Below are positions 5,551 through 60,776 of a DNA stretch of 64,000 bases, in pieces. The translations under genes were made by a program, and so were the position numbers. Under the pieces are notes generated by a model. It saw nothing but the letters and a program-made list of their open reading frames with translations, ran no database searches and was not told the DNA's origin. Position 1 is the stretch's first letter. The number at the start of each line of letters is the position of its first letter. This DNA comes from Candidatus Poribacteria bacterium (GTDB lineage Bacteria; Poribacteria; WGA-4E; JAJDTR01), in the NCBI GenBank assembly GCA_965222225.1, contig CBDCTK010000002.1, forward strand, positions 3,232,001 through 3,296,000, in the 5' to 3' direction.

Positions 5551-5698
5551 GAGTTCTATCGATCAACCGAGTGAATAGCGAGGGCGATAGCAAATCCTGC
5601 TCATTTGATCTATTCGCTCGGTTGAGGGATCTCTATCGGAATTTGCTATCGCGTTCCCTATTCGGTCACTTGATCCCTCCTTATTCAGTCGGTTGATC
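5551..5698. mobile_element. Nested cluster of about 5 copies/fragments of the 37-nt GATCAA...TCCC element
   Basis: Forward copy 5561-5598; reverse copy 5638-5675 inside a split reverse copy (5676-5698 + 5626-5637); fragments 5599-5610, 5611-5625, 5551-5560. Confidence 0.75.
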
Positions 5699-7559
5699 CC
5701 ACGGTATCGACAAAGCTTGTATACCCGGGCCCACCGGCGCCCACATAGCCATGACTCGCGCCGGATTCGTCCGGGCTTACCCAAAACGAATAGAGCTCCC
5801 CCAGCCTCAGATGAAAGCGAAATTTAACGGGTTCACCCGCCACGCTTGATAGGTCGGCTCCGCCTTTCCACTCCACCCGATGCGATGTTCTGTTGGCCGT
5901 GAGAGGCACACAGTTATCCACTGTGAACGGCTCAACGACGTTGCCATCCTCATCAAGTACCTCCACCCGCAGTTCACCTTGATCGCAGTCCGTGTTCGCA
6001 AACAAGTACTTACCGGAAAACTTGAGCGGCCTTGTCGTCAGTGTACCGGTGTTCCGGACCGAGCCCATAGAGGCGAACCCGTCGCGCCTCAAGAACGCAA
6101 GCCCCGTATTCACGAACCCGTCCCATAGCTTTCCCTTTTCCGGGAGGTTGCGCCCCGTGAAATACAGGTACAATTTATCTCCGACAACCAGACACGCACC
6201 GCTTGCCGACTGTACATTTCCCCAGTTCCATGCGCCGGGGCTTTCCGTTGCCTCAAAAAAAGGCCGGCGATCCGGGCGGTCGTAATGGAACCCGTCCCTG
6301 CTGTAACCGAGCAGCACCTCGTTCCGCTTCGGTATGTGTTTTACGTGGCACACGTCGTTATCCGGCCCCTGCCAAATCGAAAAGTACCCAAGCATTAAAC
6401 TCTCATAGGCGACCGTGTCGAAATGATACAACTGCGGCAATATTTCTGCACTATCCGGGTTCGGGTTGCGAGGATCGAGCCGGTCCGCACCCAGCCACGG
6501 AACCACCTCACCACCAGGTCTAACCTCTGCCAATTTCACGGCTTCGACAGGGGTATCCCCCTCAACGTACGCACGCGCCCGACCGGTCTCTCGTCCACTG
6601 CGTATGTTAATAATCCACTTGTCCCGGAAGGGGTTGTAGTGCGCGTTCGTGTGGTCCCCGACCACCCCTGCTGAGCTGGCTATCGGCTCAGACCAGTGTA
6701 TGCCATCGGCTGAAGTCCTGTAGGCAACAGCGGAGTCTTCACCGAGGCGCTCAGGTAAGCCTATATGCCACGTTGTGTAGAAAATCTTGTATCGGGCTAA
6801 CCGGTCGCTGGTGTCGTAGTCAATCCAAACGCTTGTGGTATCAATCGGTCGTATGTGCTTCTTTTCTGGCCACTGCGGCGGTATCGGCGGCAACTCCACC
6901 CCGTGGTCAATCACGATGTTCGTTCCCGGCAGCACGTCCTGCTCGGTCTTCTCCCAGTGAACCCCATCCTTGGACGTTGCGTAACAACTGTACTTGATGT
7001 AACCGCCGACGTACCACATCTTGAATAGCTCGTCCTTCGGGTCGTACCAGACGCCGCCGCTGAAGGGACCGGCAAAGGGCGCGGGCCCATGATGTTCCCA
7101 CTCCCTGTCCGGCTTGATGATCGGGTTTCCCTCGTAGTAGGTTGGCTGGTGGAACGTGCGTTGCAGCGTGGTCTCCTCAATCAAGAAATCGTCCACGAAT
7201 AGTTGTCTTCCAACGTCAATGTTGATAACCTCGGGCGGATTTTCGAGATACGGGACAGGCATCGGATCCCGCGTCCATCCGCCGTAATCCGGCGGCCATT
7301 TCTCAGGCAGAACGATACCGTTGTAAAGTTCCTCGCCTGTGTCGTTCTGCTTGTCCTTCATTCTTACCTCCGATTGTCCTTCTCGCCCGGAATCTTGGTC
7401 GGTTTCCGTGACCGCAGCGAGCACTATGTGAGGACCAGATTTGCTGGAAATGTATTCTGTCGACGAACCTGATGGGGCGTTCCCGATCGCCATGGTATTC
7501 ACGAGCCAAACGCCCACAAAAGCTACCCCAAGGATTCCGTAGATTTTAATCGTTCCCAT
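5685..7559 (-). CDS. Secreted glycoside hydrolase-like beta-propeller protein (GH32/GH43-clan-like)
   Basis: Signal-like N-terminus, RQLFVDDFLIE, Asp-box-like SKDGVHW/SADGIHW/SRDGFHY, C-terminal LRRDGFAS...RFHLRLGELYSFW. Confidence 0.7.
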   Translation of the reverse strand: MGTIKIYGILGVAFVGVWLVNTMAIGNAPSGSSTEYISSKSGPHIVLAAVTETDQDSGREGQSEVRMKDKQNDTGEELYNGIVLPEKWPPDYGGWTRDPMPVPYLENPPEVINIDVGRQLFVDDFLIEETTLQRTFHQPTYYEGNPIIKPDREWEHHGPAPFAGPFSGGVWYDPKDELFKMWYVGGYIKYSCYATSKDGVHWEKTEQDVLPGTNIVIDHGVELPPIPPQWPEKKHIRPIDTTSVWIDYDTSDRLARYKIFYTTWHIGLPERLGEDSAVAYRTSADGIHWSEPIASSAGVVGDHTNAHYNPFRDKWIINIRSGRETGRARAYVEGDTPVEAVKLAEVRPGGEVVPWLGADRLDPRNPNPDSAEILPQLYHFDTVAYESLMLGYFSIWQGPDNDVCHVKHIPKRNEVLLGYSRDGFHYDRPDRRPFFEATESPGAWNWGNVQSASGACLVVGDKLYLYFTGRNLPEKGKLWDGFVNTGLAFLRRDGFASMGSVRNTGTLTTRPLKFSGKYLFANTDCDQGELRVEVLDEDGNVVEPFTVDNCVPLTANRTSHRVEWKGGADLSSVAGEPVKFRFHLRLGELYSFWVSPDESGASHGYVGAGGPGYTSFVDTVGSTD

Positions 7560-7593
7560 ATAGCAATCTTCTTTTCTGTTTGCTTCACTTATT

Positions 7594-9085
7594 TCAGTTG
7601 CAACTAAACGAATACAATTTCGCGTTCTGCAACTCAAACCTTAATCGAACGTCCGTGCCTCTCGCGGCAGTCGGATCCCATCCTGCCCTCCACGTTACTT
7701 TGCCATCGGTGACGCTATTGTGGATGAGTTCGCCCTCGACGATTGGCGCTCCCTGCTCTCCAACAACCGCAGCACGGACAGACCCGCCTTCCTGCACATC
7801 TGCTGTAATCCGGAGCGACGCGAAATAACTCGTTACCAGTCTGGTCGTAATGACGGCGGGTATACCCGACGATATCTGTTCGTAACCGGCAAAACCGTCG
7901 GGACGCAACGTCGCCAAACAGAAAGAGCCGACCCGCCAACCGGAATGCGGGCCGTCGCTGGCACCGTAGTACAGACGAATCTCTTCATCCAAAAAGACGG
8001 GATTTGCAGCGGCGTACACGCACCCCCAATCGTAATCGGCTCGCTCGCTGCCTTGTGGAATTAGTGGCGAACCGGGGCATACCCGATGCCACCGAATCGT
8101 ATCCGGGCTCCAAGCCAACTCCGTATGCGTTCGATCGGTTTCCGTATTGTAGATCGCCGGTAATCCGAGATAAATCCCCTGATACCGAAACACCGGCATA
8201 CATATAGATTTGCAGATGGGGCATCTCTCCTTCAAACGCCTGCTCGACCTGCTTCCACTTGAGGAAATCCTTGCTGGCGACCCGTCCTACGGCGCGCACT
8301 CCCTGTTCCTGTCCGTTCACCGTAACCTTGGTTTCGCTGCTTATTCGGGTAAAACCGACATACTCGCCAAGTTCTGGAGACCAAAGAGCGTTGTTGGCGC
8401 TGTCCCATGCAATACCCGCTTCGGGGCATGGAATCTGTTGACTCCAGCGCACGCCATCGGCGGAGAACGCCACCGCCAACATTTGGTGCCCTGTGGTGTG
8501 GCCAATCATGAACGCCTTGTAGCGCCGAGCGGGATCCGGATCGTGCAAATCTTTGAACACGCTCGCACCATGGGGTCCGCGTACGGCAATATTATTTTCG
8601 CTGTTCCCGAGAAATTCAACAACTCCCAGCCTCGGCTTTTCCCAACGCAGACCGTCCTCGGAAACGGCATAGCAGATACCCTCATCCCTGTCCTCCGGGG
8701 ATCTGTAGAGAGTTTCTTCCCGCTCTTCAAGCGTCATGCCCTTTGCGGAGTTGTCGATGATGAACGGCATGTACCAGCACTTGTACAACTGTTCCTCTTC
8801 GTCATAAATGACCCTTGCGTAGAGGTTGTCATAGCGTTTCTCCCACGGCTCGTCTTCACCAAAAAGAGGATTGGAGGCGTGTTTCTCCACCACCCCGAGA
8901 GTCAATTGTGCATTTTGAGTGTTCGCAACAACACGCGAATCAAGCAGAAGGTATCTTTCTTTTTTCACGTCTTCATCCTTCTTTCCGTGGGCGCTGTTCG
9001 TCGAGAGACTATAGATTGCCATGGTGAGAATGACTGTCGCTGCCACCACCGTTTTACCATCGAACCTTGTGCGCCGTGCCTTCAT
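7594..9085 (-). pseudogene. Glycoside hydrolase-like beta-propeller gene, frameshifted copy
   Basis: ORFs 7985..9103 and 7594..8235 together match intact paralog 12363..13862; one extra base near 8200-8205 (ATCTATATGTATG vs ATCTATTGCATG on the coding strand). Confidence 0.85.
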
Positions 9086-9411
9086 GATAACATCCCACAA
9101 CAATATCCACTAGACTTGTGCTTTTAACAGGTTACTCCAAACAGATGCCAATGACGGTGCCGCCGGCAACAAGTTGATGCGTCTCGGTAACAGGCAGGTC
9201 GCGAATTACGGCGTTTCCAGACGGTAGGGCTTGAGGAAGAGCGGTAAATCAATCCGGTGCAAGTCCGGCAAAAATCGGATTCTTCACGCACATCCCTAAA
9301 CTATAGTTTAACCTTACTTAAATAATACGTCAACACAAAGAATCACTTGCGAAAAGTGTTATCATCAACGAGACTCCCTACTTGCAGGGGCATAGCCACG
9401 ACCGCTTTTTC

Positions 9412-9440
9412 TCGACACAATTCGTTGAGCGTGTTACAAT
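9412..9440 (+). promoter_or_regulatory. Putative sigma70 promoter for the FG-GAP gene
   Basis: TCGACA-17 nt-TACAAT; the duplicate copy has TGGACA-17-TACAAT near 14189-14217. Confidence 0.5.
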
Positions 9441-9623
9441 GAAAGCTATTCGGTGGAGATTGTTTTCACACGCTATAAACCGGAGTTTTTTCTTGAGACT
9501 CGGTTGCTGTCGCTTTATTAGCGACAGGGCAGTTCCATGTGTTGCAATCCTTATAAATTGAAACTCGGATGTTCCGTAAAAAACATCCCTATCAAAAAAC
9601 TCTATCGCGAAGGAGCGTTGTCA

Positions 9624-11285
9624 ATGAAATTCTCAAAAATACTCACTGTTTGCTTGATGCTTGGATTTGGGCAACTCACTGCGACTTTCGCGGAGTCCAA
9701 GCTAGTATCTGGCGATCCGAACATGGATGATCGGTTTGCGAACATGGATGATCGGTTTGGCTGGTCGGTAGACATCAGCGGGCATACGATAATCGTTGGC
9801 GCCCCTAATAACCACGAGAACGACGTTATTGAGCATGGATCAGCGTATATCTTTGCACTCAAAAGAGAGGGAAACAAGGACAACTGGGAACAGCAGGCAG
9901 TGCTCGATCCCCAGGAGGACGGACGCCTGAACGATAACTTTGGTTACTCTGTGGGAATCGATGGCGACTATGCCGCAGCCGGATCCCCCGGAATTAATAG
10001 TTCCACCGGTGCCGTGTATACCTACAAGCGCACCGGAGGTGTTTGGAAGCAACAGCAGAAACTCATTCCCGCCGACGCAAAAAAGAGAGACAATTTCGGA
10101 TATTCCGTTGATATGCTAGGAGAGCATCTTATCATTGGCGCTTACCTTGACGATAGCAAAGCAGGATCTGTCTATATTTTCAATCGCAACGGGGATAGAT
10201 GGCGGCAGCAGGCAAAGCTGACCGGCAACGACACTGCCAAAGGCGACAATTTCGGCGTCGCGGTTGCCCTCGGTGGCAACGAGAACGGCGTCGACTTCGC
10301 CATTGTTGGTTCGCCCAACAACACGCACAACGGGAAAAAGTCGGGCGCCGCATATATCTTCGTTCATGACGGAGGAAAATGGACGGAAGAGGCTAAACTA
10401 GTGCCCGCAGACGCTCAAACCTCCGACTTCATCGGAGATGCCGTATCTATTAGTGGGTACCGCGGCATCAAGCGTTACGCCCTCGTCGGAGCGCCGCATT
10501 TGGACTTGGCGCAGGACGTGGAGGGAAGGAACAGCGCCGCCTACATCTTCTCAAGCGATGGAGGCGCGTGGACCGAGGAAGCCAAGCTTAAGGCTAAGGA
10601 TCCGGAGAAGGCAGACGGCTTTGGATCAGGCGTGTCAATCAACCGTAATATCGCGCTAGTCGGCGTGCCGCGTCACGGGGAAGGCGCTATTCTGGACGGT
10701 GAACTCAATGCGGGAATTGTCTATCCTTATCTTCGGGAAGGCGACGGCTGGACTAGGCAACAAGCGCGGGCAACCACGGTAGCTCCGGACTTTCCGGAAC
10801 AGAGTTTCGGAAATGTAGTAATAGCCACGCAGGAGTTTATTGTCATTGCTGCGTACGGCTTGGGAAAGGGGAACCCCGGTCGCGGCGATCCAATGGGAGG
10901 TGCGGTGTATGTCTATCACACCCAAAGGGATTGGAAGCTGCCCTACGCCGTTGAACCGTCTGTACTAAGGGCGGCAACGCTGGGCGGAATAAAGCGAACG
11001 GCGCTATTCCAGAATTTTCCGAATCCATTTAATCCGGAGACCTGGCTGCCGTATCAATTGGGGCGCAAGTCAAATGTGACTCTCCGCATCTATAACACGC
11101 GAGGGCATCTTGTGCGCCGATTGGATGTAGGGCTTCAGCCGGCGGGCAGTTATCAGAACAAAGAAACCGCTGTCTATTGGGACGGTCGAGATCGATTGGG
11201 ACAGCCCGTCTCCAGCGGCCTCTATTTCTACACACTAACCGCAGGCACATCTCAAATCACGCGCAGAATGCTAATTTTGAAATAG
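9624..11285 (+). CDS. Secreted FG-GAP repeat beta-propeller protein with C-terminal FlgD-Ig/sorting-like domain
   Basis: Signal peptide, repeated DNFGYSV..G..A.VGAP...G.VYIF units, C-terminal ALFQNFPNPFNPETWLPYQL...SSGLYFYTL; 21-bp in-frame tandem duplication at 9718-9759. Confidence 0.85.
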   Translation: MKFSKILTVCLMLGFGQLTATFAESKLVSGDPNMDDRFANMDDRFGWSVDISGHTIIVGAPNNHENDVIEHGSAYIFALKREGNKDNWEQQAVLDPQEDGRLNDNFGYSVGIDGDYAAAGSPGINSSTGAVYTYKRTGGVWKQQQKLIPADAKKRDNFGYSVDMLGEHLIIGAYLDDSKAGSVYIFNRNGDRWRQQAKLTGNDTAKGDNFGVAVALGGNENGVDFAIVGSPNNTHNGKKSGAAYIFVHDGGKWTEEAKLVPADAQTSDFIGDAVSISGYRGIKRYALVGAPHLDLAQDVEGRNSAAYIFSSDGGAWTEEAKLKAKDPEKADGFGSGVSINRNIALVGVPRHGEGAILDGELNAGIVYPYLREGDGWTRQQARATTVAPDFPEQSFGNVVIATQEFIVIAAYGLGKGNPGRGDPMGGAVYVYHTQRDWKLPYAVEPSVLRAATLGGIKRTALFQNFPNPFNPETWLPYQLGRKSNVTLRIYNTRGHLVRRLDVGLQPAGSYQNKETAVYWDGRDRLGQPVSSGLYFYTLTAGTSQITRRMLILK

Positions 11286-11313
11286 ACTTCCAAGAGATTC
11301 GAAGATGGTTATC

Positions 11314-11343
11314 GGCAGGGCACGCGGGTGTCCTGCCTTTTTT
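11314..11343 (+). terminator. Rho-independent terminator
   Basis: GGCAGGGCAC-GCGG-GTGTCCTGCC followed by TTTTTT. Confidence 0.8.
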
Positions 11344-11466
11344 GTAATCACTAAACGGGAGCACTTCATGATTTAGACCAATTTTATCAAGCATTTGGCG
11401 GTATGCCTGCCCCAATGGTGGGAATCGTTCCTAAATTATGGAATTGCTAACATTGCCTATTTTGGC

Positions 11467-11495
11467 TTGACAATCTATAGAGCCAACAGTATCAT
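11467..11495 (+). promoter_or_regulatory. Putative sigma70 promoter (accD copy 1)
   Basis: TTGACA-17 nt-TATCAT; the equivalent at 16472-16500 is TTGACA-17-TAATAT. Confidence 0.6.
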
Positions 11496-11560
11496 AACTT
11501 TTTCCTACGAACAAGAATCGAATATGTAGTAAAACCCGGACGCGAGGATGGTGGCGATTC

Positions 11561-11791
11561 ATGGAATTGATTTCCTGTCGGAAATGCGACGCACAACTTG
11601 CCAAACAGGAGTTCATTAAGAGGCACCATAGAGTCTGCCCGGAATGCGATCATCATGACTATTTGAGCGCATTTGAACGTCTTGAACTATTGGTTGATGA
11701 CGGCAGTTTTGAATCGCACGACGACGGGCTTTATTCGCTCGATCCACTAGAATTTCCGGATTACGTGGAGAAACTGGAAAGAGACGCCGCC
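11561..11791 (+). pseudogene. accD: 5' fragment of accD, truncated at the duplication junction
   Basis: Zn-finger CRKC...CPEC through EKLERDAA matches 16563-16793, then runs into the antisense strand of the hydrolase fragment. Confidence 0.9.
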
Positions 11792-12301: not shown

Positions 12302-12362
12302 TCCCGTCTAGTCCTTATGAGCCAAGCTGTTAGCAATTTCTCCTCTTTTTGCTTCGCTTATT

Positions 12363-16186: not shown

Positions 16187-16224
16187 GATCAAGCGACCAG
16201 ATTGGGAGTGGGATAGAGATTCCT
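16187..16224 (+). mobile_element. 37-nt element copy inside a hairpin
   Basis: GATCAAGCGACCAGATTGGGAGTGGGATAGAGATTCCT between ATGGGA and CCGCAGTGCCGTCCCAT. Confidence 0.65.
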
Positions 16225-17347: not shown

Positions 17348-17413
17348 GATCAAACGAGTGAATAGCGAGTGCGATAGAAGATCCCATAGTAAATCCCGTG
17401 CGATAGCAATCCC
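17348..17413 (+). mobile_element. 37-nt element plus two stacked 3' fragments
   Basis: Full copy 17348-17385, ATAGTAAATCCC 17386-17397, GTGCGATAGCAATCCC 17398-17413; flanks GCGTTAC | ATCACGCATTA. Confidence 0.75.
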
Positions 17414-24989: not shown

Positions 24990-25240
24990 AGAGCAATCGC
25001 ATCTGATTGTAGGCGATTCAATGAGCGAATAGATCAATCAAACGAATAGCGCGCGCGATAGTAATCCTGCGATAGAGATCCTTCTGAGATATCGATCGAT
25101 AGTCTCCAAATCGTCGATTGCCCACTTGTAACGGATACCGCCCTCGCCAATCTTCAAAGATTGCACGCCGTTCAGTCGGGATAGCTTACAATCATGAGAC
25201 GGCACAGGCGCCGTCCCCCACAATCAGGTGTGATTGCCCT
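24990..25240. mobile_element. MITE-like element with ~20-bp terminal inverted repeats; contains a REP-like hairpin and a nested 37-nt element (25015-25082)
   Basis: AGAGCAATCGCATCTGATTG ... CAATCAGGTGTGATTGCCCT; hairpin GACGGCACAGGCGCCGTC near the right end. Confidence 0.6.
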
Positions 25241-32562: not shown

Positions 32563-32658
32563 GATTAAATGGGCGGATAGTTCAAGCGATTGAATAAGGA
32601 TCGACTGGGCGAATAACGAATGTTCGAATGAACGGACAGTGAGTGCGATAGAGCTCCC
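32563..32658 (+). mobile_element. Three stacked 5' fragments plus one full degenerate 37-nt element
   Basis: GATTAAATGGGCGGATA / GTTCAAGCGATTGAATAAG / GATCGACTGGGCGAATAACGAAT / GTTCGAATGAACGGACAGTGAGTGCGATAGAGCTCCC. Confidence 0.6.
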
Positions 32659-42490: not shown

Positions 42491-44938
42491 TCAGGAGGCA
42501 ACACCTGCGTCGTCAATCACGCCCAATTTCCCGCTTACATCACCGGTCTCGCCTAATTCAACTGGCATCTCGCCGGAAGGTGCGTTGCCTTGTCCCATTC
42601 GTAGCTGACGTTCAGCATCAACCACATCGCGGTTGATTTTTGCGATACATCGATCTAATTTGTCCAACAGTGTGCCATGTCCCTCCATTGCGCGGCGTGC
42701 CTGACGGAGAAAGTCTATCACAAGTCGAAATGAACGGACAAAATCGCCGTCAGCAAGATCCGCATACCTGTGGAGTTCCTCAAATTCGCAACCTCGGCTC
42801 CAGGCAAGCATTGCCGTACTCAGCTTGGTTTCAAACTTCGGCGTGACCTCCGCAACACGGTGCAACGCTTCCAGAACGCGCAGACCTTCAATCTCCCTAT
42901 CCGCCGATTTCAGAACCTGTTTTAATCGGTTGTCATACAGTTTTCGATAGTGCCCCGAATCCTTCCGTGGTTCGGAGACAATCGCCATCATCAAGACATT
43001 GATATCGTCTTCGCCCAGCTTCTCAAAAAAACCACCAAACAGCAACAGAGAGATTTGCATTTCATAACCCGAAATCCGTGAGGCAATCTCCCCTCTAGGT
43101 AACAAATCAGCTTCCCCTATATAACCGAGTTCTTCAAGCACTTTAAGACGGGATGCAATCTGCCTTTGCTGAAAGTGCTCAAAATGATCGCGTTCTCGGA
43201 CGAGGGTTTCAACTTGGCTGGTGAATTGCTCAATTTCCTGATACTGTTGCTGGCACAACTTAAATCGTTGGCAACCGTGGCACAGACTGTCCTGTAATAT
43301 GGACTCAACTTGTCGCATCTGCTGATTATTGTAAGCAAGTTTCTTGAGCCGCATTCGCTTATTCTTGCTGCCACGGTGTTTTCGTTTTATTTCTAGGCGT
43401 TTTGCTTTAAGAGTTTGTTTCTGATCTGTGACGTCGTTGAGGAGATCGAGGTAGTTGGTAACCTGCTCGGAGGCATCCAAATGTTCGTGAACACAGATTG
43501 GCAACGGCGAACTCTTGAGCCCCTTTTCGGCGTGCTTGAGGTCTTTATCAATTTTACGAATTCGCGTGTAGTTTTGGAAATTACTTAAGCTAACCGTACA
43601 AACATCGTATATGTCATTGCCGTACTTCTGGTACAGATTCAAAATGCTTGAATAAGAGAGGTTAAATTGACTCCCAATCGACTCAATCTTATCGGAGGTG
43701 ATTTTTCGGACCTTCTCAGTGTCCGTAAATCGAGGATTGACCCTGGCATAGACGTAACCGACGGGATCGATGCCGCGCCGCCCGGCGCGTCCCGCCATCT
43801 GATGATATTCGCGTGCTTTTAGATAGCGGAAACCGACTCCATCGAACTTTTCTAGGCCCTCAAATATCACCGTACATGCCGGCATGTTAATGCCCACAGC
43901 GAACGTTTCTGTCGTGAAAAGCAACTGCACCAGCCCGGAAGTAAACAGTTGTTCGACTACTTCCTTCAAGGTAGGCAGCATCCCGGCGTGGTGGTAGGCG
44001 ACCCCTTTCAAAATCAGACTGCGCAACTCGGACGCCTTCCGATTATCCTGAATACCGTGCCGTACGCACAGCGAATCAAACAGGACGAGGATCTGTTCCC
44101 GTTGTTCCGCTTTAAGAAAACTACGCCGGGAGGCGTGGGCATAGGACTCGGCGTTTCGCTCACACTGCTTGCGGCTAAAGGAGAAGTATAGACAAGGCAG
44201 CCGCTTACGTTTTTGAACGTAATCCACCAGATCTTCGCGAACCAGGTTGGGCATTCCATCAGCAACGATTTCGTCAACCTTCTCGTCGTCATGAAGATGA
44301 TTGAATTTGTCGATAATCTGTTGACTCCGCAGCAGATCGTCGATTGTCCCAATGCCATATCCGTCGAGGTAGAGGTAATGTTCAAGGGGCACGGGCCGTT
44401 CAAGTTCCTGAACCACATCAATCTCTATCTCTCGGACGCTGCGCATCCAATCCCCGAACTGATTGATATTCGGTATGGTCGCGCTCAAACACGTAAATTT
44501 AATATGTTGTGGAGCGAAAATGATGCTCTCTTCCCACACCGTCCCCCGTTCAACGTCGTTGATGTAATGAATCTCGTCAAAGATAGCGTATTCTACATCC
44601 GACAAGCGCTCAATATCGTCAAAAATCGTGTTTCTGAAGATTTCCGTTGTCATCAACAGAATCTGGGCATACGGATTGAGCACCACATCTCCCGTTAGGA
44701 TACCCACTCGGTCGCCATACCGTTTATAGAAATCTCGATATTTTTGGTTACTCAGAGCTTTGATTGGCGCCGTGTAAATCACGCGTCGATCGTCCTGAAT
44801 ACACTTGTCAACTGCATACTCCGCAACCACCGTTTTGCCCGCTCCGGTTGGAGCGGCGACAATGACAGAACGCTCCTGATCTATTGCCTGGATAGCTTCT
44901 TCTTGGAACCGATCGAGCTGTAAACCCCTGTAGAACAT
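42491..44938 (-). CDS. Ski2/HelY-like DExH RNA helicase
   Basis: APTGAGKT, PIKALSNQK, DEIH, LSAT, HHAGMLP, TETFAVGINMPA, QMAGRAGRRG, DSHCT-like C-terminus. Confidence 0.93.
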   Translation of the reverse strand: MFYRGLQLDRFQEEAIQAIDQERSVIVAAPTGAGKTVVAEYAVDKCIQDDRRVIYTAPIKALSNQKYRDFYKRYGDRVGILTGDVVLNPYAQILLMTTEIFRNTIFDDIERLSDVEYAIFDEIHYINDVERGTVWEESIIFAPQHIKFTCLSATIPNINQFGDWMRSVREIEIDVVQELERPVPLEHYLYLDGYGIGTIDDLLRSQQIIDKFNHLHDDEKVDEIVADGMPNLVREDLVDYVQKRKRLPCLYFSFSRKQCERNAESYAHASRRSFLKAEQREQILVLFDSLCVRHGIQDNRKASELRSLILKGVAYHHAGMLPTLKEVVEQLFTSGLVQLLFTTETFAVGINMPACTVIFEGLEKFDGVGFRYLKAREYHQMAGRAGRRGIDPVGYVYARVNPRFTDTEKVRKITSDKIESIGSQFNLSYSSILNLYQKYGNDIYDVCTVSLSNFQNYTRIRKIDKDLKHAEKGLKSSPLPICVHEHLDASEQVTNYLDLLNDVTDQKQTLKAKRLEIKRKHRGSKNKRMRLKKLAYNNQQMRQVESILQDSLCHGCQRFKLCQQQYQEIEQFTSQVETLVRERDHFEHFQQRQIASRLKVLEELGYIGEADLLPRGEIASRISGYEMQISLLLFGGFFEKLGEDDINVLMMAIVSEPRKDSGHYRKLYDNRLKQVLKSADREIEGLRVLEALHRVAEVTPKFETKLSTAMLAWSRGCEFEELHRYADLADGDFVRSFRLVIDFLRQARRAMEGHGTLLDKLDRCIAKINRDVVDAERQLRMGQGNAPSGEMPVELGETGDVSGKLGVIDDAGVAS

Positions 44939-45052: not shown

Positions 45053-45224
45053 GATCAAGCGACCGGATAGGGAGCGCGATAGTAATCCCGATAGTAAATC
45101 CCATAGCGAAGGCGATAAGGATCCCTCTCTTGATAGGGATTCCTGTAGGTGTGCAACCGTCAAATAGTCGATTTCCTCTCTTACTGCGATCAAGCAACTG
45201 AATAAGGAGTACGATAGAGATTTT
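45053..45224 (+). mobile_element. Cluster of 37-nt element copies
   Basis: Full copy 45053-45089, 3' fragments 45090-45102 and 45103-45125, second full copy 45188-45224; a reverse fragment lies at 45365-45381. Confidence 0.7.
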
Positions 45225-45549
45225 CAGGTTTTATGGAAAACGAAAACATGAAAATAAACCGACGGGCGACAGATGAATAGAATGAAAGTGAAGTGACTCC
45301 ATTGGTGCCTAATGCGCAAGGACGACCGCAATACTGCTCGCAACTGCAGGTCTCGATCAGGAGAAGATCTCTATCGCACTCAAATGCCCAGAAATAATTT
45401 TGCTATCTACTTTTCAAAAGGGCTCTAAATCCCTAAAATCCGACGCGGTTGCCCTGCCGTAACATTGAAATCTATAGACAAGGATTCGCGAATTGGTATA
45501 AAATACCATCTAATCGGCAGAACTATCCTATTATCGTGTGAGGAGAGCT

Positions 45550-47482: not shown

Positions 47483-47548
47483 GTAGGTTGGGTTGAACGC
47501 TCAAGCGAGCGATTAGCGAGTGCGATAGAGATTCCCGTCAAACCCAAC
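47483..47548 (+). repeat. GTAG REP-like element interrupted by a 37-nt element (47499-47536)
   Basis: GTAGGTTGGGTTGAAC [insert] GTCAAACCCAAC; uninterrupted homolog at 50844-50874. Confidence 0.8.
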
Positions 47549-50200: not shown

Positions 50201-50305
50201 GTTCAACCGAACGAATAGATCAACTGAGCGGATAGCGAAGACGATAGAGATCCCAGGGCGATAGTAAATCCCGTGCGATAGAGTTTCCAGCGCGATAGAG
50301 TTCGC
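50201..50305 (+). mobile_element. Five-piece stack of the 37-nt element inside a CACGCATTAC/ATCACGCATTA repeat
   Basis: 5' piece 50201-50217, full copy 50218-50254, 3' pieces 50255-50272, 50273-50288, 50289-50305. Confidence 0.75.
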
Positions 50306-50814: not shown

Positions 50815-50843
50815 AATAGGTCACTCGCACCCGATTCTCGCCT

Positions 50844-50874: not shown

Positions 50875-50968
50875 TATTTAGCCTCCATTCCTTCCCTCCA
50901 GAGAAAAGATCCATTGGGGACGGTGTGGAAGATGTTCCCCAACCTTCCGCTCTTCCATCCTTCCAACC

Positions 50969-53194: not shown

Positions 53195-53274
53195 AAATTT
53201 TCTCCTTAAGCGGTGTACACTCGCAAGATGCGCCTCTCAGTTACGGAGTGCGCCCCGTGATGTTCAAATACCTT

Positions 53275-55731: not shown

Positions 55732-55783
55732 TCTCTTCTTAACTTTCCGGCTTCAATTCCTGATTCTGCAACGACCAAACCCT

Positions 55784-57061
55784 CTAGATTGCCAAGAACA
55801 AATCAATAGCAGCCAATCGTAGCGAGAGCGCGCCTATAAAGCGGGCAGCAGAGGCGCCATCAACTGCCTGATGGTCTATCGTTAATGACAACCCGATGTG
55901 CGAGAGGTGTTGTATCTCGCCGTCAACCTCCACCGGCTTCAGATTCACATTGCCCACACCGAGGATGCCCACCTGCGGTGGGTTTAATATCGGGGTGAAG
56001 TTCTCAATCCCCAAACTCCCTAGATTTGTCACTGTAAATGTGCCGCCGGTCAACTCATCGGGGGAGATGTTTCCTTCCAAACATGCAGCCGTCAATCGTG
56101 TCGTTTCTAGCGAAATCGCTTTCAGATTCAAAGTGTTAGCGTCCCGAATGACGGGCACCATCAGGCACCGAGGCGTATCCACGGCAAACCCTAGATGCAC
56201 ATCTTCGTATTGGGAGATTGTGTTCCTGCGGAGCAGGGCGTTCAACTCTGGATGGTCAGGCAAGGTGCGCGACACGGCGAAAAGGATGAAATCGTTAATT
56301 GTGACGTTCCGAAGATTGAATGCTTCGGCGCTACTCTTCAAACGCTGGCGATAGGATAATAAGGCGCGCGCATCTGCCGAGGCATTGAGCGTAAGCTGCG
56401 CGGTCGTTTGAATCGAATGCAGCATTCGCTCGGCGATAATCTTGCGCGTGCCTTGCAGTGGAACTGCTTGCGCTTCACCCGGAGGGGGCTCAAGCTGAAC
56501 CGGGGAACTTGACCTCGTTTGAACCGCTGCGGGTTTCGCAGCAGCCGTAGGCGCGGCTTGAACGTCTCTCTCAATTATGCGTCCTCCCGGACCTGTACCC
56601 CGGATGCCGGAGATATCCACCCCTAGCTCCTCTGCCAAACTCGCCGCCCGCGGTGATATGCGGCGTTTAAGCCGGTCGGGCTTAGAAGGATGCTCTTGGG
56701 GCGGCTCCAATGCCTCCGGTTGGGTGGGGACAGCCTGAACCGGTTCGTCGGAAGTAGTGGACGATTTGTCGTCGGACTGGAAGACCATCGCTACGGCGGG
56801 TTTTAGGCTGGAAACATCCTCGCCGGGTTCACCAATGGCGGCGATGTTAACCTGTACAGCGACCTCTTCTCCCTCGTCGAAAAACAGATCCAATAGAGTG
56901 CCGGACGCGGGGCTTTCCACTTCCAATGCGGATTTGTCGGTTTCCACCTCGCAGAGCGGTTCCCCTGCGGTAATTGAATCGCCCTTATGTTTCTTCCAAC
57001 CGACGATAATACAGGTTTCGACTGACTGCCCGAGTTTGGGCATTACGACCGCTGTTGCCAT
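55784..57061 (-). CDS. Dihydrolipoamide acyltransferase E2
   Basis: Lipoyl domain EVETDKS, E3-binding GTGPGGRIIERDV, catalytic DHQAVDG. Confidence 0.93.
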   Translation of the reverse strand: MATAVVMPKLGQSVETCIIVGWKKHKGDSITAGEPLCEVETDKSALEVESPASGTLLDLFFDEGEEVAVQVNIAAIGEPGEDVSSLKPAVAMVFQSDDKSSTTSDEPVQAVPTQPEALEPPQEHPSKPDRLKRRISPRAASLAEELGVDISGIRGTGPGGRIIERDVQAAPTAAAKPAAVQTRSSSPVQLEPPPGEAQAVPLQGTRKIIAERMLHSIQTTAQLTLNASADARALLSYRQRLKSSAEAFNLRNVTINDFILFAVSRTLPDHPELNALLRRNTISQYEDVHLGFAVDTPRCLMVPVIRDANTLNLKAISLETTRLTAACLEGNISPDELTGGTFTVTNLGSLGIENFTPILNPPQVGILGVGNVNLKPVEVDGEIQHLSHIGLSLTIDHQAVDGASAARFIGALSLRLAAIDLFLAI

Positions 57062-57151
57062 AAGGTTTTTTTACTTCAGCGTGTTTGATGTGTTTTCATG
57101 AATGTTTGTAATGGTCAGGAAGGTGCGAAACACTCAAAGTTGCTTCCCGCA

Positions 57152-57224
57152 GGGAACTCTATCGATCAACTGAGCGGATAGCGATGGCGATAGAATATCC
57201 TGCTCCCTATTCGGTCACTTGATC
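57152..57224. mobile_element. Forward 37-nt element (57164-57201) inserted inside a reverse copy
   Basis: GGGAACTCTATC [GATCAACTGAGCGGATAGCGATGGCGATAGAATATCCT] GCTCCCTATTCGGTCACTTGATC. Confidence 0.8.
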
Positions 57225-57558
57225 GGTTTCGACGCTTATCGTCTTTACTGTCGCGACCCCAAACTCCCACGTTTTCCCTTTAAGATTTTAACATCTGTCC
57301 CTTACCTTTTGCCAATGAAAAGTCAGTCCCTGAAAACGCCTCGCTTGGCGCTTCATCTATACCCATTCCATTAACCGCAATTGAGGGTGAGTCGGCACGT
57401 CGAGAGGTTGACACAAGTGACGTTGTCCGTCAATTCATTGGCAAGGAGAGAGAGAGGGATGTTACTCTTTATGACTTTGCAACGCGGACTTATTGACAGT
57501 ACATAGAGACATTTGCATGAAGGAGTTTACGAGGCAATAGGAAGTCGCGATTCGGAGA

Positions 57559-57618
57559 GGAATTTTCTATGGGAGCTCTATGGGATTGCTATCGCGTTCG
57601 CTATCCACTCACTTGATC
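57559..57618 (-). mobile_element. 37-nt element plus two stacked 11-12 nt 3' fragments
   Basis: Reverse complement: GATCAAGTGAGTGGATAGCGAACGCGATAGCAATCCC ATAGAGCTCCC ATAGAAAATTCC. Confidence 0.75.
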
Positions 57619-57671
57619 CCTCATTTTAATATCCCACAACGTCCCAACTTCCACGAAAAGGAAACTCAACC

Positions 57672-58703
57672 ATGACAACGACAACCAAAGTTGGTATTAT
57701 CGGCGCCGGTGGCATCGGGGCGGGAAAGCATCTGCCCGGACATCGGGGGGTCAAAGACGTGTCGATCATTGCCGTGTGCGACATTGACGAATCGAAAGCG
57801 AAAGAGTTCGCTAAGCAACACGAGATAGAGCACGTCTTTTCGGATTACAACGACCTCCTCGCCATGGACGAGATAGACGCGGTAAGCGTGTGTACCCCGA
57901 ACAATTTCCATGCGCCGCCAACGATTGCCGCGTTGGAGGCAGGCAAGCATGTCATTTGCGAGAAACCGATGGCGAGCAATGCGATTGATGGACAAGCCAT
58001 GGTTGATGCCTATCATGCGTCGGGAAAGATACTCCAGATCGGTCTGCAGAACCGATTCACGGTGGAATCGAGAACCTTGAGAAAACTCTGTGACGAGGGA
58101 TTCTTCGGGGACATTTACTATGCCCGCGCCATGTCGGTGCGCCGACGCGGCGTGCCCGGGACGCCGTCTTTCATCACGAAAGCTATCTCCGGCGGCGGTC
58201 CGCTCATCGACATCGGCGTGCATATTCTTGACGCGCTGCTGTGGATTCTCGGATGTCCCAAGCCGGTTGAGGCGTTCGGATTCACCGCGCAGAAATTCGG
58301 GAATCAGAAGGACGTAATCAATCCGTGGGGTAGTTGGGATCCTGCCCAATTCGAAGTCGAAGATTTCGCGATGGGGGTTGTTCACTTTGAAGGCGGACTA
58401 ACGGTCGCACTGGAGACCGCATGGGCGTCTCACATCGACAACATCGGCACAACATTCTTCATAGGCGATCGCGCCGGCGCGACGCACTCCCCGCTTCGCA
58501 TCTACACGGACAAGGACGGAAAGATGATCGACTATGAACCTGAACCCCTTACCAATTTGACCGGTGAGTTTGAATCTTTCCACAATGCGATTCGAGAGGG
58601 ATTGCCGTCGCCAGTGCCCCCGGAGGAAACGCTGATAATCACCAAGATTTTTGACGCCATGTACGAATCTGCTCGGATTGGCAGGTCGGTACCGGTTGAG
58701 TGA
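57672..58703 (+). CDS. Gfo/Idh/MocA family oxidoreductase
   Basis: VGIIGAGGI, CTPNNFH, GKHVICEKPMA, GGGPLIDIGVH.LD. Confidence 0.92.
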   Translation: MTTTTKVGIIGAGGIGAGKHLPGHRGVKDVSIIAVCDIDESKAKEFAKQHEIEHVFSDYNDLLAMDEIDAVSVCTPNNFHAPPTIAALEAGKHVICEKPMASNAIDGQAMVDAYHASGKILQIGLQNRFTVESRTLRKLCDEGFFGDIYYARAMSVRRRGVPGTPSFITKAISGGGPLIDIGVHILDALLWILGCPKPVEAFGFTAQKFGNQKDVINPWGSWDPAQFEVEDFAMGVVHFEGGLTVALETAWASHIDNIGTTFFIGDRAGATHSPLRIYTDKDGKMIDYEPEPLTNLTGEFESFHNAIREGLPSPVPPEETLIITKIFDAMYESARIGRSVPVE

Positions 58704-58748
58704 AAAGGCAGCGGTCAGTGGTTGGAGACTGTCTGAATCGCGGATTCA

Positions 58749-58819
58749 GGGATCTCTATGGGACTTCTATCGCGGTCACTATCCGTTTCCTTGATCCCTC
58801 GCTGTCCACTCGGTTGATT
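58749..58819 (-). mobile_element. Self-nested pair of 37-nt elements inside a GTCTGAATCGCGGATT...GGATTA repeat
   Basis: Inner copy 58760-58796 splits an outer copy; near-identical to 60706-60776. Confidence 0.75.
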
Positions 58820-58888
58820 GGATTAGACACGGGTAGTAGGGCAATTTACCTGTAATTCAATGGGCTTCAGCCGTCTGTTACCATTTCC

Positions 58889-59098
58889 TTACATTTTAGC
58901 CAGAGTCTTCCATGCTCGTTCGTACTTTTTCATGATTTTCTTTAGGGCGATCTCGGCATCAGGCTCCACTGGATGAGCCGTGTCCCGCGCCTGTTTATTC
59001 TGAAGATCGACAAGCAAGTCAACGACCAATTTGAGCTCTTCTGTGGACAGTTGTTTGATTAACGCAACGGCTTGTTGTTGTAGTTCTGCTTTTCCCAT
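58889..59098 (-). CDS. Small helical protein (DUF2281-like, possible antitoxin)
   Basis: 69 aa, LIKQLSTEELKLVVDLL...YERAWKTLAK; a paralog with a nonsense codon lies at 60846-61055. Confidence 0.6.
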   Translation of the reverse strand: MGKAELQQQAVALIKQLSTEELKLVVDLLVDLQNKQARDTAHPVEPDAEIALKKIMKKYERAWKTLAKM

Positions 59099-59103
59099 GG
59101 CAA

Positions 59104-60654
59104 TTAGCTAGGTTGTAACATTGCGGCGATGTCTTCCGGTAGTTTCACGTCGTTTTTCTGCTCAAAGTCCGAAACGTCCTCGTATTCGTTTTGAAACGTC
59201 GCAACGATGTCCATCCCCTGTTCTTTCGCGACTATCAAGTCTGACTTCGCGTTTTCCCATTCTTCTAAGTGTAGGCGTGCTTCGCCGCGATTGTAATACG
59301 CTGCCGTAAGATCTGATTTCAGTTCTATCGCTTTGTTAAAGTCTTCAAGGGCACGATTATAATCGGCTTTGTGGTTGTAAGCATTACCGCGATTGTGATA
59401 TGCCCGTGCAAGTTCCGGTTTCAACGCTATCGCTTGCGTATAGTCCGCGATGGATAGGTTGAACTCTTCCTTTTCGAAATAAGCAATGCCTCGATTATAA
59501 TAAGCTGCGGCAAGATCCGGTTTCAGTACAATTGCTTTGTTGTAGTCCACGATTGCAAGATCGACCTCTCCCTTGTTGCGATAAGCGGCACCACGGTTGT
59601 TATAAGGTTCTGCATAATCCGGTTTGAGTCTAATCGCCCTGTTGCAGTCCGCGACGGCACGGTCATAATCGCCTTTGATGCGGTAAGCCCCGCCGCGATT
59701 ACTGTAGGCTTCGGCATAGTCCGGTTTGAACTCTATTGCCTTGTTAAAATCTTCAATGGCGCGGTCAATCTCACCCTTATCACTGTACACGAGACCGCGG
59801 TTATTATAGGCAATAGCAAAATCAGGCTTCAGTTCAATTGCCTTGTTGAGGTGCGTAATTGCTTTCTCATAACGCGCGTGATTTGTCTGTGTCTCCATGC
59901 TTTCAGTCTCCGTTTTGTTGAGGAATCCAATACGCTACTCCTCCAATAGTGTGCTGTCGTCGCGCGGCTCGATTGCACTCCTATAAAGTTCTAAGTATGC
60001 ATTCTGGTGAACACCCTGATTTCTAATGAATCCGTGGAGGTCGTTGTAAACGGTTTCGGTAGATATTCCGTGGTATTTCCTCAAATGGTTTAACATGGGT
60101 TGCTTTATGCTTTGTGGAATATCAATTGTGGTGAACTGTTCCGGTTCAAGAAATCCCTTGGGAGGTCGAACAAACGTACTCTTCTGAGCAATGACTCGAT
60201 TTCTCGGATTCCGAGGCGGGTTGATTGGATCTTCTATGTCCTCGGTTTTCGGCAACAGGACAGCCCTGCCATCTTTGTCACCGGCACCGTCGCACGCAAA
60301 GAAGAGGGCAATGTGATAGTCGGTCGTGAAATCAATCAGATTGGTTTGACCTCCATAGTGCTGGAGTTCGGTCAAGATCTCCATATCGTCCATTTCGTAT
60401 GTATAGCTTCTTGCCGCCTCTAACATTTGATCTTGGATAGCCTCTATGTCAAACGGTTCCTCCCCCATCTCTTTCTTGAATTGACGCCAAAGGTTTGAGG
60501 AGACTTTCCCGCAGTAGGGATCTTCTTGATAATGTTCAGGTTCCCCGCGATAGATGTAGTCGCCGCTGGTTTACTCTGCGGCAATCTCCTGAATCTTTTC
60601 AAAAACCGTATTAAGGTCGTTTGAGGATTCGGATTGGTTCTGTGTGGTCGTCAT
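59104..60654 (-). pseudogene. FRG-domain + TPR gene interrupted by two in-frame stops
   Basis: One reading frame from ATG 60654 (GDYIYRGEPEHY, ELQHYGGQTNLIDFT, RVIAQKS, then TPRs) with TAA at 60571-60573 and TAG at 59935-59937; the TPR part 59104..59898 could still be translated alone. Confidence 0.8.
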
Positions 60655-60705
60655 TTGTCCTCTAGAATGGCAACCTTTTCCTTAATTGTCTGAATCGCGG
60701 ATTAA

Positions 60706-60776
60706 GGGATCTCTATGGGACTTCTATCGCGGTCACTATCCGTTTCCTTGATCCCTCGCTATCCACTCGGTTGATC
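60706..60776 (-). mobile_element. Self-nested pair of 37-nt elements (second copy)
   Basis: Inner copy 60717-60753; differs from 58749-58819 at 2 positions by eye. Confidence 0.75.

Follow-up and report, generated by a model that had tools for sequence, protein, structure and literature searches.

The genome of this Candidatus Poribacteria bacterium contains a real family of short repeats, present in 986–1003 copies (about 1000), that has repeatedly entered REP-type repeats, a MITE-like repeat and its own older copies. The repeated unit is 37 nt in length, which places it among the smallest apparently mobile elements known. The element keeps the shape of a hairpin and not the sequence of its stems, and this hairpin forms on the purine-rich strand only. 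The reading favoured here, at a probability of about one half, is that it is a non-autonomous element of approximately 37 nt moved as a single strand, probably DNA, by a putative trans-acting enzyme, and the covarying hairpin is the strongest clue to such a single-stranded intermediate.

The window, which is the whole 64-kb stretch of DNA that was analysed, contains 14 matches to the motif GATCAA-NN-GA-NN-GRATAG-S-GA-NN-GCGATAG with up to 3 mismatches, and none were found in 100 dinucleotide shuffles. An earlier note on this DNA had listed about 14 loci, and the element is present at these, although nothing beyond degenerate or partial copies is found at 32563 and 45365. Its count of about 30 full or partial copies is raised to 40 segments by a position-weight scan, which identified 14 full or near-full copies and approximately 26 fragments in 12 repeat-bearing regions. 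The sharply defined ends that it described are borne out by an information content that falls to background beyond both ends of the 37-nt unit. Tail length is 7 nt in 617 of 889 copies and 8 nt in 264. All of the loci lie between ORFs, as also claimed, with the cluster at 5551–5705 abutting or overlapping the stop end of ORF 5685–7637. The copies within the window and one empty host repeat are as follows.

5561–5597, plus strand: full copy, head-to-head inside an older minus-strand copy (tail fragment 5551–5561); motif and position-weight scan
5599–5638, minus strand: three fragments of interrupted copies (model 0–11, 2–17 and 24–36); position-weight scan
5638–5675, minus strand: full inner copy with an 8-nt tail; the outer copy has its 5' half at 5675–5698 and its tail at 5626–5638; motif and position-weight scan
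5675–5698, minus strand: 5' half of the outer copy (model 0–23), abutting the stop end of ORF 5685–7637
16187–16223, plus strand: degenerate full copy with 3 mismatches to the motif
17348–17385, plus strand: full copy with an 8-nt tail, then an orphan 3' fragment at 17398–17413
25020–25082, plus strand: nest with a full copy (25032–25068) in an outer copy (5' part 25020–25032, 3' part 25067–25082)
32563–32658, plus strand: four consecutive degenerate or partial copies; position-weight scan
45053–45143, plus strand: full copy (45053–45089), then 3' remnants at 45090–45102, 45103–45125 and 45132–45143
45188–45224, plus strand: degenerate copy
45366–45382, minus strand: 3' fragment (model 18–34); position-weight scan
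47499–47535, plus strand: copy within the GTAGGTTGGGTTGA...TCAAACCCAAC hairpin repeat; congeners differ in the orthologous spacer
50203–50303, plus strand: nest with the 5' half of an outer copy, a full inner copy (50218–50254) and three 3' remnants
57152–57224, mixed strands: tail fragment (minus), full copy 57164–57195 (plus) and older copy 57196–57224 (minus)
57571–57618, minus strand: full copy (57582–57618) and a tail remnant
58749–58810, minus strand: full copy (58760–58796), nested, with outer-copy remnants on both sides
60706–60765, minus strand: full copy (60717–60753) likewise nested in an outer copy; 48 nt are identical to 58749–58796
62595–62811, plus strand: empty (uninterrupted) MITE-like host repeat of approximately 215 nt bearing TIRs

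Genome-wide, the element occupies 720 dispersed loci at which copies adjoin or interrupt one another, and the one 38-nt tandem array found has an 8-nt linker instead of spacers. The scan of this and related genomes that had been proposed as a check identified 691–1438 matches per species across the 10 species of the main genus and approximately 230–250 per genome in a second Candidatus Poribacteria genus. These 14 assemblies (10 of the main genus and 4 of the second) form the element-rich set, and lineage-specific tails distinguish their copies. The single sister-genus genome exhibits 4 matches at up to 2 mismatches and 7 at up to 3, and the pattern search did not find the element in most genera of the phylum. 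The reversed pattern gave no matches in 41 of 41 and 176 of 176 genomes searched. A scan of contigs returned at least 80 loci, all from Poribacteria among the matches listed, and viral contigs gave no exact matches to the pattern. The suggested search for a described RNA family, carried out on the window with Rfam 15, yielded no match at the gathering score; at E up to 5 the sole match was a weak and unrelated SorX at 43026–43084. A literature search combining Poribacteria with repeat terms returned no Poribacteria paper among the matches listed. A cyanobacterial host, which GATC and GCGATAG might suggest, was rejected, as the genome contains T9SS and sulfatase domains and only 120 HIP1 octamers.

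The element begins with GATCAA, followed by 2 bp, a tandem G.A, 2 bp, a GRATA loop, 2 bp, a second tandem G.A, 2 bp and GCGATAG, and is completed by a 3' tail of 7–8 nt with a pyrimidine end. Watson-Crick or G.T pairing is present at model positions 6-22, 7-21, 10-18 and 11-17 in 94–96% of 986 copies, whereas pairing is only 26–52% when the partner is swapped inside each block. The variable 2-nt blocks thus represent four base pairs that covary and surround tandem G.A pairs. The element folds as a small hairpin, and the statement that copies lack an internal hairpin has to be withdrawn. Within the window, 94.2% of cells pair compared to 66.1% in shuffles, with the observed value reached by none of 500, and the covariation score of 35 distinct copies from the second genus was likewise reached by 0 of 500 shuffles. 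The 986 copies display 286 stem combinations, and approximately 22 positions are strongly conserved alongside stems that are free in sequence but paired. Wobble cells are asymmetric, with 425 G.T/T.G against 50 A.C/C.A; because G.T wobbles occur on the purine-rich strand only, this one strand is the active strand. With RNA parameters, four of five top strands adopt a common three-helix rod, which the bottom strands do not, and the covarying fold is not predicted with DNA parameters. The hairpin is thermodynamically weak, with z-scores of -1.1 to +0.8.

Filled and empty sites, whose comparison at orthologous positions had also been proposed, were both found among paralogues of the 215-nt repeat and of the REPs. 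The 215-nt repeat has paralogues in both states with clean junctions, those of 62595–62811 elsewhere in the genome carrying the element at two defined sites. REP-B was found empty 35 times and filled 19+38+10 times, while REP-A was empty 84 times (62 with the loop GCACT) and filled 16 times. Genome-wide, 160 copies, or 177 of 889 at a looser threshold, lie inside the halves of an outer copy, and the stems of such split outer copies mostly still pair in the examples inspected. The claim that copies interrupt other repeats and each other thus holds across the genome. Part of the copy number comes from hitch-hiking in other mobile repeats and from local tandem amplification. At its second site, the 215-nt repeat has 4 filled copies that all show one stem type. 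This stem type has 38 copies, and the REP-B junction form TGG-GATCAA likewise has 38.

Insertion into REPs is in a single orientation (49 vs 0 in REP-B, 26 vs 0 in REP-A and 9 vs 0 in REP-C), and in REP-A and REP-C the element strand is the one with the GTAG head. In 368 unique non-self flanks, G predominates at position -2 (70%) and C or G at position -1 (90%), and GTAG is located 5 nt upstream of the element in 82 of 412 non-self insertions. About 1–3 target bases (GCG, GCA, GA) are lost and target duplication is absent. The earlier account of 2–3 bases replaced without duplication therefore stands in kind, but the exact number is ambiguous (0–3) because the first G or GA of the element can be read as target. 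The stated lack of TIRs, TSDs and CRISPR-like spacing is supported, and the proposal that the unit is written into breaks or nicks is not. Flanks pair across the element in 63 of the 412 non-self insertions (15%), so targeting of hairpin loops is true for a minority and the idea that the element always lies in loops was rejected. The possibility that the variable stems are copied from the target or direct the element to it was also rejected, their mutual information with the flanks being at most 0.07 bit. Unpartnered 5' and 3' fragments are equally common (123 vs 126), and there is thus no 5'-truncation signature of retrotransposition.

Crude ORFs make up 79% of the DNA, and 979 of 1051 copies are located outside of them. 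The flanking genes are in the ++ configuration 345 times and in the -- configuration 306 times. The top (structured) strand of the element is on the C-rich (lagging) strand in 65–73% (about 70–80% as a summary figure), with replication strands assigned indirectly because of repeated sign changes in the GC skew of the assembly. Approximately 70% of neighbouring loci have the same orientation, giving 229 runs compared to 340 expected. Copies are found on both sides of 92 genes, which is too many to point to an enzyme.

Orthologous spacers in nine congeners range from 61 to 673 nt and carry differing sets of copies, and orthologous copies in sister species are decayed. Presence or absence at orthologous sites, on which the earlier note had staked its claim, is exemplified at 57152–57224, where four congeners have a remnant of the older copy at the same place and the plus-strand copy 57164–57195 is found in this genome only. 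The copy at 57571–57618 is common to congener G005, and the locus exhibits a 13-nt tail-unit polymorphism in two other public runs. As independent data, contigs from two other studies bridge 56813–58506 with both element clusters intact. For near-identical strains in four public runs covering 16 kb as contig data, the joints listed include no gain or loss of a whole unit; the differences among them are a 13-nt tail unit and a 34-nt skip. Several joints have short sides and probably derive from other copies of the element. Public-run contigs break at repeats and RNA-run contigs end at the edges of element clusters. Metatranscriptome runs contain the region, and as contigs are uninformative on transcription, starts or ends of the element. 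Matches in four other bins are limited to a few short contigs, which makes the element a practical hazard for assembly and binning.

The earlier note saw no enzyme in the window, and this holds; no RT, IS110, TnpB or specific Y1 transposase is co-distributed with the element in the genomes searched. Of 41 genomes, 34 have Y1 genes, among them 20 of the 26 that lack the element, and each of the three Y1 types tested is absent from some element-rich genomes or present in element-free genera. A TnpA-REP-like HUH source, as formerly suggested, thus finds no Y1/HUH subfamily that follows the distribution of the element. RAYT genes are flanked by REP-B or REP-C, the GTAG-headed host REPs are sequences separate from the element, and the element lies next to RAYT genes because it has been inserted into their own REPs. 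Three individual Y1 genes were rejected. The copies flanking the gene at C2:3080254-3080728 are insertions into its own REP-B; the truncated gene at C2:3560268-3560492 is flanked by the element here, and its full-length homologues in three congeners have none within 1.5 kb; and a 257-aa protein is full-length in only 2 genomes. PF04986 (Y2_Tnp) gave 0 matches, as did its control. Only 6 of the 14 element-rich genomes gave a match to the reverse transcriptase domain PF00078, and the RT or retron-like source once proposed is therefore unlikely.

If the element is moved by a trans-acting enzyme, it would be copied and inserted as a single strand that is recognised by its shape and its invariant single-stranded motifs. 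This strand is more likely DNA than RNA given that no RT is co-distributed, transcription bias is absent and replication-strand bias is clear. The leading candidate for the enzyme doing the work is a resident HUH/Y1 (RAYT-like) protein acting at REP hairpins. Insertion may coincide with replication, either in the nascent lagging strand or where hairpins form. The observed insertions are in one orientation relative to REPs, directly after G-[C/G], with about 1–3 bases lost and no duplication.

A special case of this reading, conceivable but on balance unlikely, is that the element is a hyperparasite specific to RAYTs, joined where a RAYT cleaves the REP strand; its hairpin would mimic a REP enough to be cut as well, giving rise to nesting. 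The single orientation in three REP families, on the GTAG-head strand of REP-A and REP-C and often 4–5 nt past GTAG, is consistent with this proposal. So are the Y1 genes in 14 of 14 element-rich genomes, the lack of any in the sister-genus genome with 4 matches (up to 2 mismatches), and the finding of neither IS110 (PF01548) nor TnpB in this genome. However, a genus with the same REP-B and a RAYT that is 70–77% identical has no element, that RAYT type is absent from two element-rich genomes, and RAYT/IS200 chemistry is not known to remove target bases and cuts outside of the hairpin.

Mobility through RNA, in which the element is transcribed, folds as an RNA hairpin and is copied back by an RT or by reverse splicing, is doubtful; mobility of this kind has reportedly been proposed for cyanobacterial SDRs. 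The G.U-type wobble asymmetry and the tandem G.A pairs speak for it, since G.U wobbles and tandem sheared G.A pairs are typical of RNA, and the covarying fold is recovered by RNA and not DNA parameters in four of five copies. Against this, PF00078 is restricted to 4 of 10 main-genus genomes (3 of these near or below the family cut-off) and 2 of 4 second-genus genomes, orientation is biased by replication strand and not by flanking genes, and truncation at the 5' end leaves no signature. Equally speculative is a more specific form of the favoured single-strand reading, in which a resident HUH or other enzyme would add a 37-nt hairpin 'oligonucleotide element' to the nascent lagging strand at REP hairpins or at the element's own hairpin during replication. 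The element would be a gene-less hyperparasite of the REP/RAYT system that replaces 1–3 bases, and SDRs would be the same phenomenon of independent origin.

It is improbable that the element is not mobile itself and is instead a structured motif selected by the host, such as an ssDNA or RNA binding site in replication or the nucleoid, multiplied through gene conversion and local duplication and as a passenger of REP/MITE repeats. The roughly 22 positions conserved beside free but paired stems would suit such a motif, as would an orientation tied to the replication strand, known for polar motifs, the ties of the commonest stem types to composite repeats (the two sets of 38) and the existence of tandem arrays. 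However, copies degenerate at orthologous sites of sister species and accumulate in gene-free nests where interruption destroys the structure of the outer copy, the element was not found in most genera of the phylum, and the junctions are as sharp and reproducible as in site-specific joining. An assembly, adapter or vector artefact, for which nothing was found in favour, can be dismissed for practical purposes, as 14 assemblies from two genera contain the family, its tails differing by lineage, contigs from several studies' runs bridge its loci, and its stems are diverse and covarying.

To our knowledge, precise insertion by elements so small, non-coding and devoid of terminal repeats is otherwise confined to the Nostocaceae. 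The element provides a second and unrelated case, in closed genomes of an uncultivated sponge-symbiont phylum, and it accounts for much of the intergenic variability between Poribacteria species. Its features constrain the mechanism testably through the active strand, the joining site and the bases lost, and it offers a concrete substrate for biochemistry with the few Y1/HUH proteins of these genomes.

Among known systems, CRISPR arrays consist of regular identical repeats with unique spacers, unlike the dispersed, abutting or interrupting copies found here. MITEs have TIRs and a target-site duplication, whereas the ends GATCAA and ATCCC of the element are not inverted repeats and bases are lost. 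A retron or RT-made element would be expected to co-occur with an RT, and PF00078 is present in 6 of 14 genomes. IS110/IS1111 elements that target REPs or attC resemble the element in orientation-specific insertion into REP hairpins without duplication, but are 1.2–1.5 kb long and encode a DEDD transposase, and no match to PF01548 was found in this genome.

The IS200/IS605 family with its miniature derivatives, which are single-strand 'peel and paste' elements, shares the lack of TIRs and TSDs, strand specificity, hairpin recognition (for the IS) and a replication-orientation bias. These IS carry hairpins at both ends and insert 3' of a fixed tetra- or pentanucleotide, while the element contains a single hairpin, follows the loose target G-S^G(C)R and removes 1–3 bases. 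The active strand of IS200/IS605 is the lagging-strand template, and transposition occurs without loss of target bases; if the leading strand is G-rich, the strand preference of the element is the opposite. REPs and REPINs are also short extragenic hairpin units in hundreds to thousands of copies, for which structure-based recognition of a single strand is plausible, as it is for the element with Y1 genes in every element-rich genome. REPs are imperfect G+C-rich palindromes of 20–40 nt that are usually headed by GTAG or CGTC and flank their cognate RAYT in inverted orientation. In contrast, the element has two 2-bp stems split by G.A, neither head nor doublet (REPIN) organisation, and is merely inserted into those REPs.

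The earlier note put the element forward as a candidate undescribed system, but small dispersed repeats of cyanobacteria are reportedly similar. SDR1-8 of the Nostocaceae, which Elhai et al. 2008 are said to have described, are nested, structured and inserted in other repeats, with a reported length of 21–27 nt. Of these repeats, SDR5 is reported to insert precisely into the HIP1 octamer, and a citing paper states that no SDR-like repeats were found outside the Nostocaceae. The element differs in its length of 37–38 nt, in its host phylum, in its loss of a few target bases and in its replication-strand bias. Both are very short dispersed units of a narrow clade that nest in themselves, insert in other repeats and have no known transposase, and shared secondary structure with compensatory changes is common to the element and some SDR families. 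Judged by this description and not by sequence, the cyanobacterial SDRs appear to be the closest known things to the element.

The repeat family described in the earlier note is genuine and lies far above chance. Its motif matches the window 14 times with up to three mismatches and is absent from 100 dinucleotide-preserving shuffles. Scanning the 12 repeat-bearing window regions with a weight matrix identified 40 segments, composed of 14 full or near-full copies and approximately 26 fragments, in agreement with the initial estimate of about 14 loci and roughly 30 copies. The whole assembly (5.70 Mb, two contigs) contains 1003 matches, of which 181, 378, 311 and 133 exhibit zero, one, two and three mismatches respectively. 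The ends are sharply defined as proposed, with information content at background level directly beyond both edges of the 37-nt unit. The tail 3' of GCGATAG is 7 nt in 617 of 889 copies and 8 nt in 264. Every window locus is located between ORFs and one cluster touches the stop end of ORF 5685-7637, consistent with the intergenic placement and single stop-codon exception first reported.

The variable 2-nt blocks of the element, previously thought to form no internal hairpin, pair with each other as identified by covariation across 986 copies. Watson-Crick pairing accounts for 71, 91, 93 and 83% of copies at the pairs 6-22, 7-21, 10-18 and 11-17 (0-based), and G.T for an additional 24, 3, 3 and 13%; swapping the partner within each block leaves only 10-25% Watson-Crick. 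The invariant G8.A20 and A9.G19 form a tandem G.A between two 2-bp helices, A5.G23 and G12.A16 flank this arrangement, and the loop is R-A-T. The stems occur in 286 distinct combinations. Pairing extends to 94.2% of cells among the window copies and to 66.1% in shuffles; none of 500 shuffles attains the observed score for pairing or covariation, and slid registers give 23-58%. In a second genus, 35 distinct copies taken from four genomes give values of 95.7 and 68.5%, again equalled by none of 500 shuffles. The stem cells include 425 G.T/T.G versus 50 A.C/C.A, which indicates that the structure is maintained on the purine-rich (top) strand only. Folding with RNA parameters places four of five top strands in one rod that adds ATC(1-3)/GAT(25-27). 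No such rod was obtained for the bottom strands, DNA parameters did not recover it, and all folding z-scores are unremarkable. Support for the structure therefore comes from covariation and not from stability, which suits a shape that is read by a protein. This clear structural signature corrects the first interpretation of the element.

The element has been inserted many times, in a strand-specific manner and with slight loss of target bases but no target duplication. By site, about 40% of the 986 copies lie in or against another copy, about 20% in three REP-type hairpin families (REP-A, REP-B and REP-C) and about 10% after another GTAG motif, with 27% unclassified. Where both REP flanks are recognisable, the two orientations occur at 49:0 in REP-B, 26:0 in REP-A and 9:0 in REP-C. 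The 368 unique non-self flanks carry G at position -2 in 70% and C or G at position -1 in 90%, and 82 of 412 non-self insertions follow a GTAG whose end lies 5 nt upstream. The flanks pair across the element in only 63 of 412 cases, versus 5% with shuffled partners, and stems and flanks exhibit no shared information (mutual information at most 0.07 bit).

Copies interrupt each other as claimed, with 160 full copies located between the halves of another (177 of 889 at a looser threshold). In the nested examples displayed, the stems of the outer halves are unlike those of the inner copy, and the two halves mostly remain able to pair. The outer copy is entered preferentially after position 22 in 58 cases (GCG or GC missing), after position 18 in 26 (GA missing), after position 11 in 17 (GR missing) and after positions 16-17 in 27. 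Because the element begins with GA, the junction G (or GA) can also be read as target sequence, and with this assignment GCG and GCA sites lose 1-2 nt and some others 0-2 nt. The proposed replacement of 2-3 bases without duplication is therefore retained as a small loss without duplication, the number of bases being ambiguous. Copies flanked by a 5' outer half alone (123) are as frequent as those flanked by a 3' outer half alone (126), which does not match 5' truncation of the element and agrees with subsequent deletion between adjacent direct repeats. Elsewhere in the genome, on contig C2, a tandem array of 38-nt period (C2:1578372-1578600) carries cores of the element linked by TCTTGTAG, and a gene-free nest of 2.2 kb (C2:2705800-2708000) consists almost purely of copies, which run in both directions and show a higher-order period.

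The interruption of host repeats is borne out by filled and empty paralogues. This genome carries about 100 full or partial copies of a MITE-like repeat of ~215 nt with terminal inverted repeats (window 62595-62811); those aligned differ at two fixed sites by precisely one or two units of the element. The host repeat is itself made up of a pair of REP-B hairpins and a single REP-A hairpin, and all nine congeners have many copies of it. Empty REP-B (CCCCAGnGGGGCGA) occurs 35 times, and the filled forms CCCCAGnG-GG/TGG/CGG-GATCAA... occur 19, 38 and 10 times respectively. Empty REP-A occurs 84 times between GTAGGGTGC and GCGCACC, 62 of these with GCACT, and in 16 filled occurrences GCA is replaced by the element. 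One stem type, with 38 copies genome-wide, is found in all four 215-nt repeats filled at the second site; the TGG-GATCAA junction form of REP-B also numbers 38. The copy number of the element is partly second-hand through spread inside other repeats.

Presence/absence differences at orthologous sites, a check suggested in the earlier note, were found in six intergenic regions compared with nine congeners (flanking-gene identity about 82-90%). Orthologous spacers differ widely in length, e.g. 61-673 nt, and carry different sets of copies. Contigs of other studies also bridge loci of the element. The window features concerned are as follows.
57196-57224: 12-nt remnant of the element kept at the same place in four other species.
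Next to 57196-57224, + strand: copy seen only in this genome of those compared.
57582-57618: copy common to this genome and just one congener.
56813-58506: region bridged by contigs of two other studies, with both clusters of the element present.
57561: congener G005 and the contigs from two other studies have an extra 13-nt tail unit at this site that is absent here; this is a small-scale length polymorphism between adjacent tail remnants.
58749-58796 and 60706-60753: identical 48 nt (tail remnant and full copy) in direct orientation, bracketing two ORFs.
59.3-59.7 kb: many joints in other runs.

The host is a member of Candidatus Poribacteria, with Pfam matches in the window to the T9SS sorting domain, sulfatase and FG-GAP. 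With up to two mismatches permitted, each of ten species in the main genus contains 691-1438 matches, each of four species in one genus of another family contains 225-249, the sister genus contains four, and 26 other genomes of the order contain none. Matches were found in 21 of 176 genomes of a phylum sample, and a reversed-pattern control gave none in every genome searched. For four of seven low-count genomes (G066, G124, G125 and G146), all matches sit on just one to four short contigs of the bin, at main-genus density, and these contigs are probably mis-binned contamination. The sister genus, with seven matches at up to three mismatches dispersed across six contigs, was not counted as such. 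Genomes of the second genus have the same 30-nt core with a different tail (GATAG-TCTTCTCC or GATAG-TTTTCTCC), which indicates that the family evolved separately there. When all prokaryotes were scanned at one genome per species, at least 80 loci were obtained, and all among the matches listed are Poribacteria. IMG/VR viral contigs gave no matches, and Rfam 15 gave none at gathering score or at E-values up to 5.

The element is extragenic, with 979 of 1051 near-full copies outside crude ORFs that make up 79% of the DNA. Its orientation is linked with the replication strand as assigned via GC skew. There is no sense bias relative to flanking genes (++ 345, -- 306). The top strand lies on the C-rich strand by local GC skew in 65-73% of cases, with neighbouring genes co-oriented and opposed alike. 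Consecutive loci no more than 20 kb from each other point the same way in 64-71% of cases, and 229 orientation runs were observed versus 340 +/- 13 expected; together these correspond to a preference of roughly 80% within a domain. The leading strand is usually the G-rich one, and since this rule is applied here to an assembly with many skew sign changes, the term "lagging strand" is indirect for the element. Over the whole length of C2 the skew changes sign many times and the orientation of the element flips with it. These flips indicate many rearrangements or else a mis-ordered assembly.

None of the gene families tested has the distribution of the element. The reverse transcriptase domain PF00078 is present in 13 of 41 genomes, including only four of ten in the main genus and two of four in the second, which counts against the retron-like cDNA source considered earlier. 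A weak RVT_1 match (27.5 bits) lies in a 679-aa open frame at C2:4500547-4501089, with similar weak matches in two congeners. IS110 (PF01548) and TnpB (PF07282) gave no matches in this genome, with positive controls, and PF04986 gave none with its control likewise silent. As to the HUH (TnpA-REP) source proposed in the earlier note, the Y1 domain PF01797 is encoded by all 14 genomes rich in the element (34 of 41 overall), yet also by 20 of 26 without it, and no tested Y1 type follows the element. The five Y1 loci of this genome are as follows.
C2:3080254-3080728: intact RAYT-like gene (loci L037-L049 in the comparison) with inverted REP-B flanks (GCCCCAGCGGGGCGACAGGTG-type) in three genera, one of them free of the element. 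It is rejected as the enzyme on this ground, since copies lie nearby only through insertion into its REP-B flanks.
C2:3088937-3089269: gene with an in-frame TAG and REP-C flanks (GTAGGAGCGATCTCCAGGTCGCGAC-type).
Truncated gene flanked by the element here: rejected, with intact homologues in three congeners without the element nearby.
C2:2563965-2564705 (L213): gene for a 257-aa protein, rejected as full-length in only two genomes. This genome and one congener share it at 99% identity, and it is otherwise nearly absent, which looks like a recent transfer.
Fifth locus: 171-aa form whose flanks carry a further GTAG hairpin.
As REP-B and REP-C each flank a Y1 gene, the genome holds several REP/RAYT pairs.

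Conserved single-stranded motifs combined with freely covarying stems are what would be expected of a non-autonomous replicator. A putative machine would read the shape and a few bases of the element, and only copies retaining both would leave descendants. The wobble asymmetry on one strand points to a single-stranded intermediate. It is possible that this intermediate moves by an RNA route; a DNA intermediate is favoured by the lack of a co-distributed reverse transcriptase, the lack of transcription bias and the replication-strand bias. It is also possible that the element is a motif selected by the host. The strand preference of the element would suit a speculative step in which, at structured pause sites, a top-strand oligonucleotide is joined to the nascent lagging strand.

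The element does not exhibit the defining features of REP/REPIN, MITE, CRISPR or retrons. Set beside IS200/IS605 miniatures, it has Y1 genes in its genome but a single hairpin, a loose G-S^G(C)R target and a loss of target bases. The strand preference reported for IS200/IS605 is opposite to that of the element. The SDRs of Nostocaceae, which Elhai et al. reportedly described in 2008, are said to be nested, structured and inserted into other repeats. By this description, the element behaves like the SDRs. A citing paper places SDR5 of Nostocaceae precisely within HIP1, and a later paper describes SDRs as unknown outside Nostocaceae. The family in Poribacteria is a real and unusual repeat, belonging to the rare kind of "very small mobile repeated elements".
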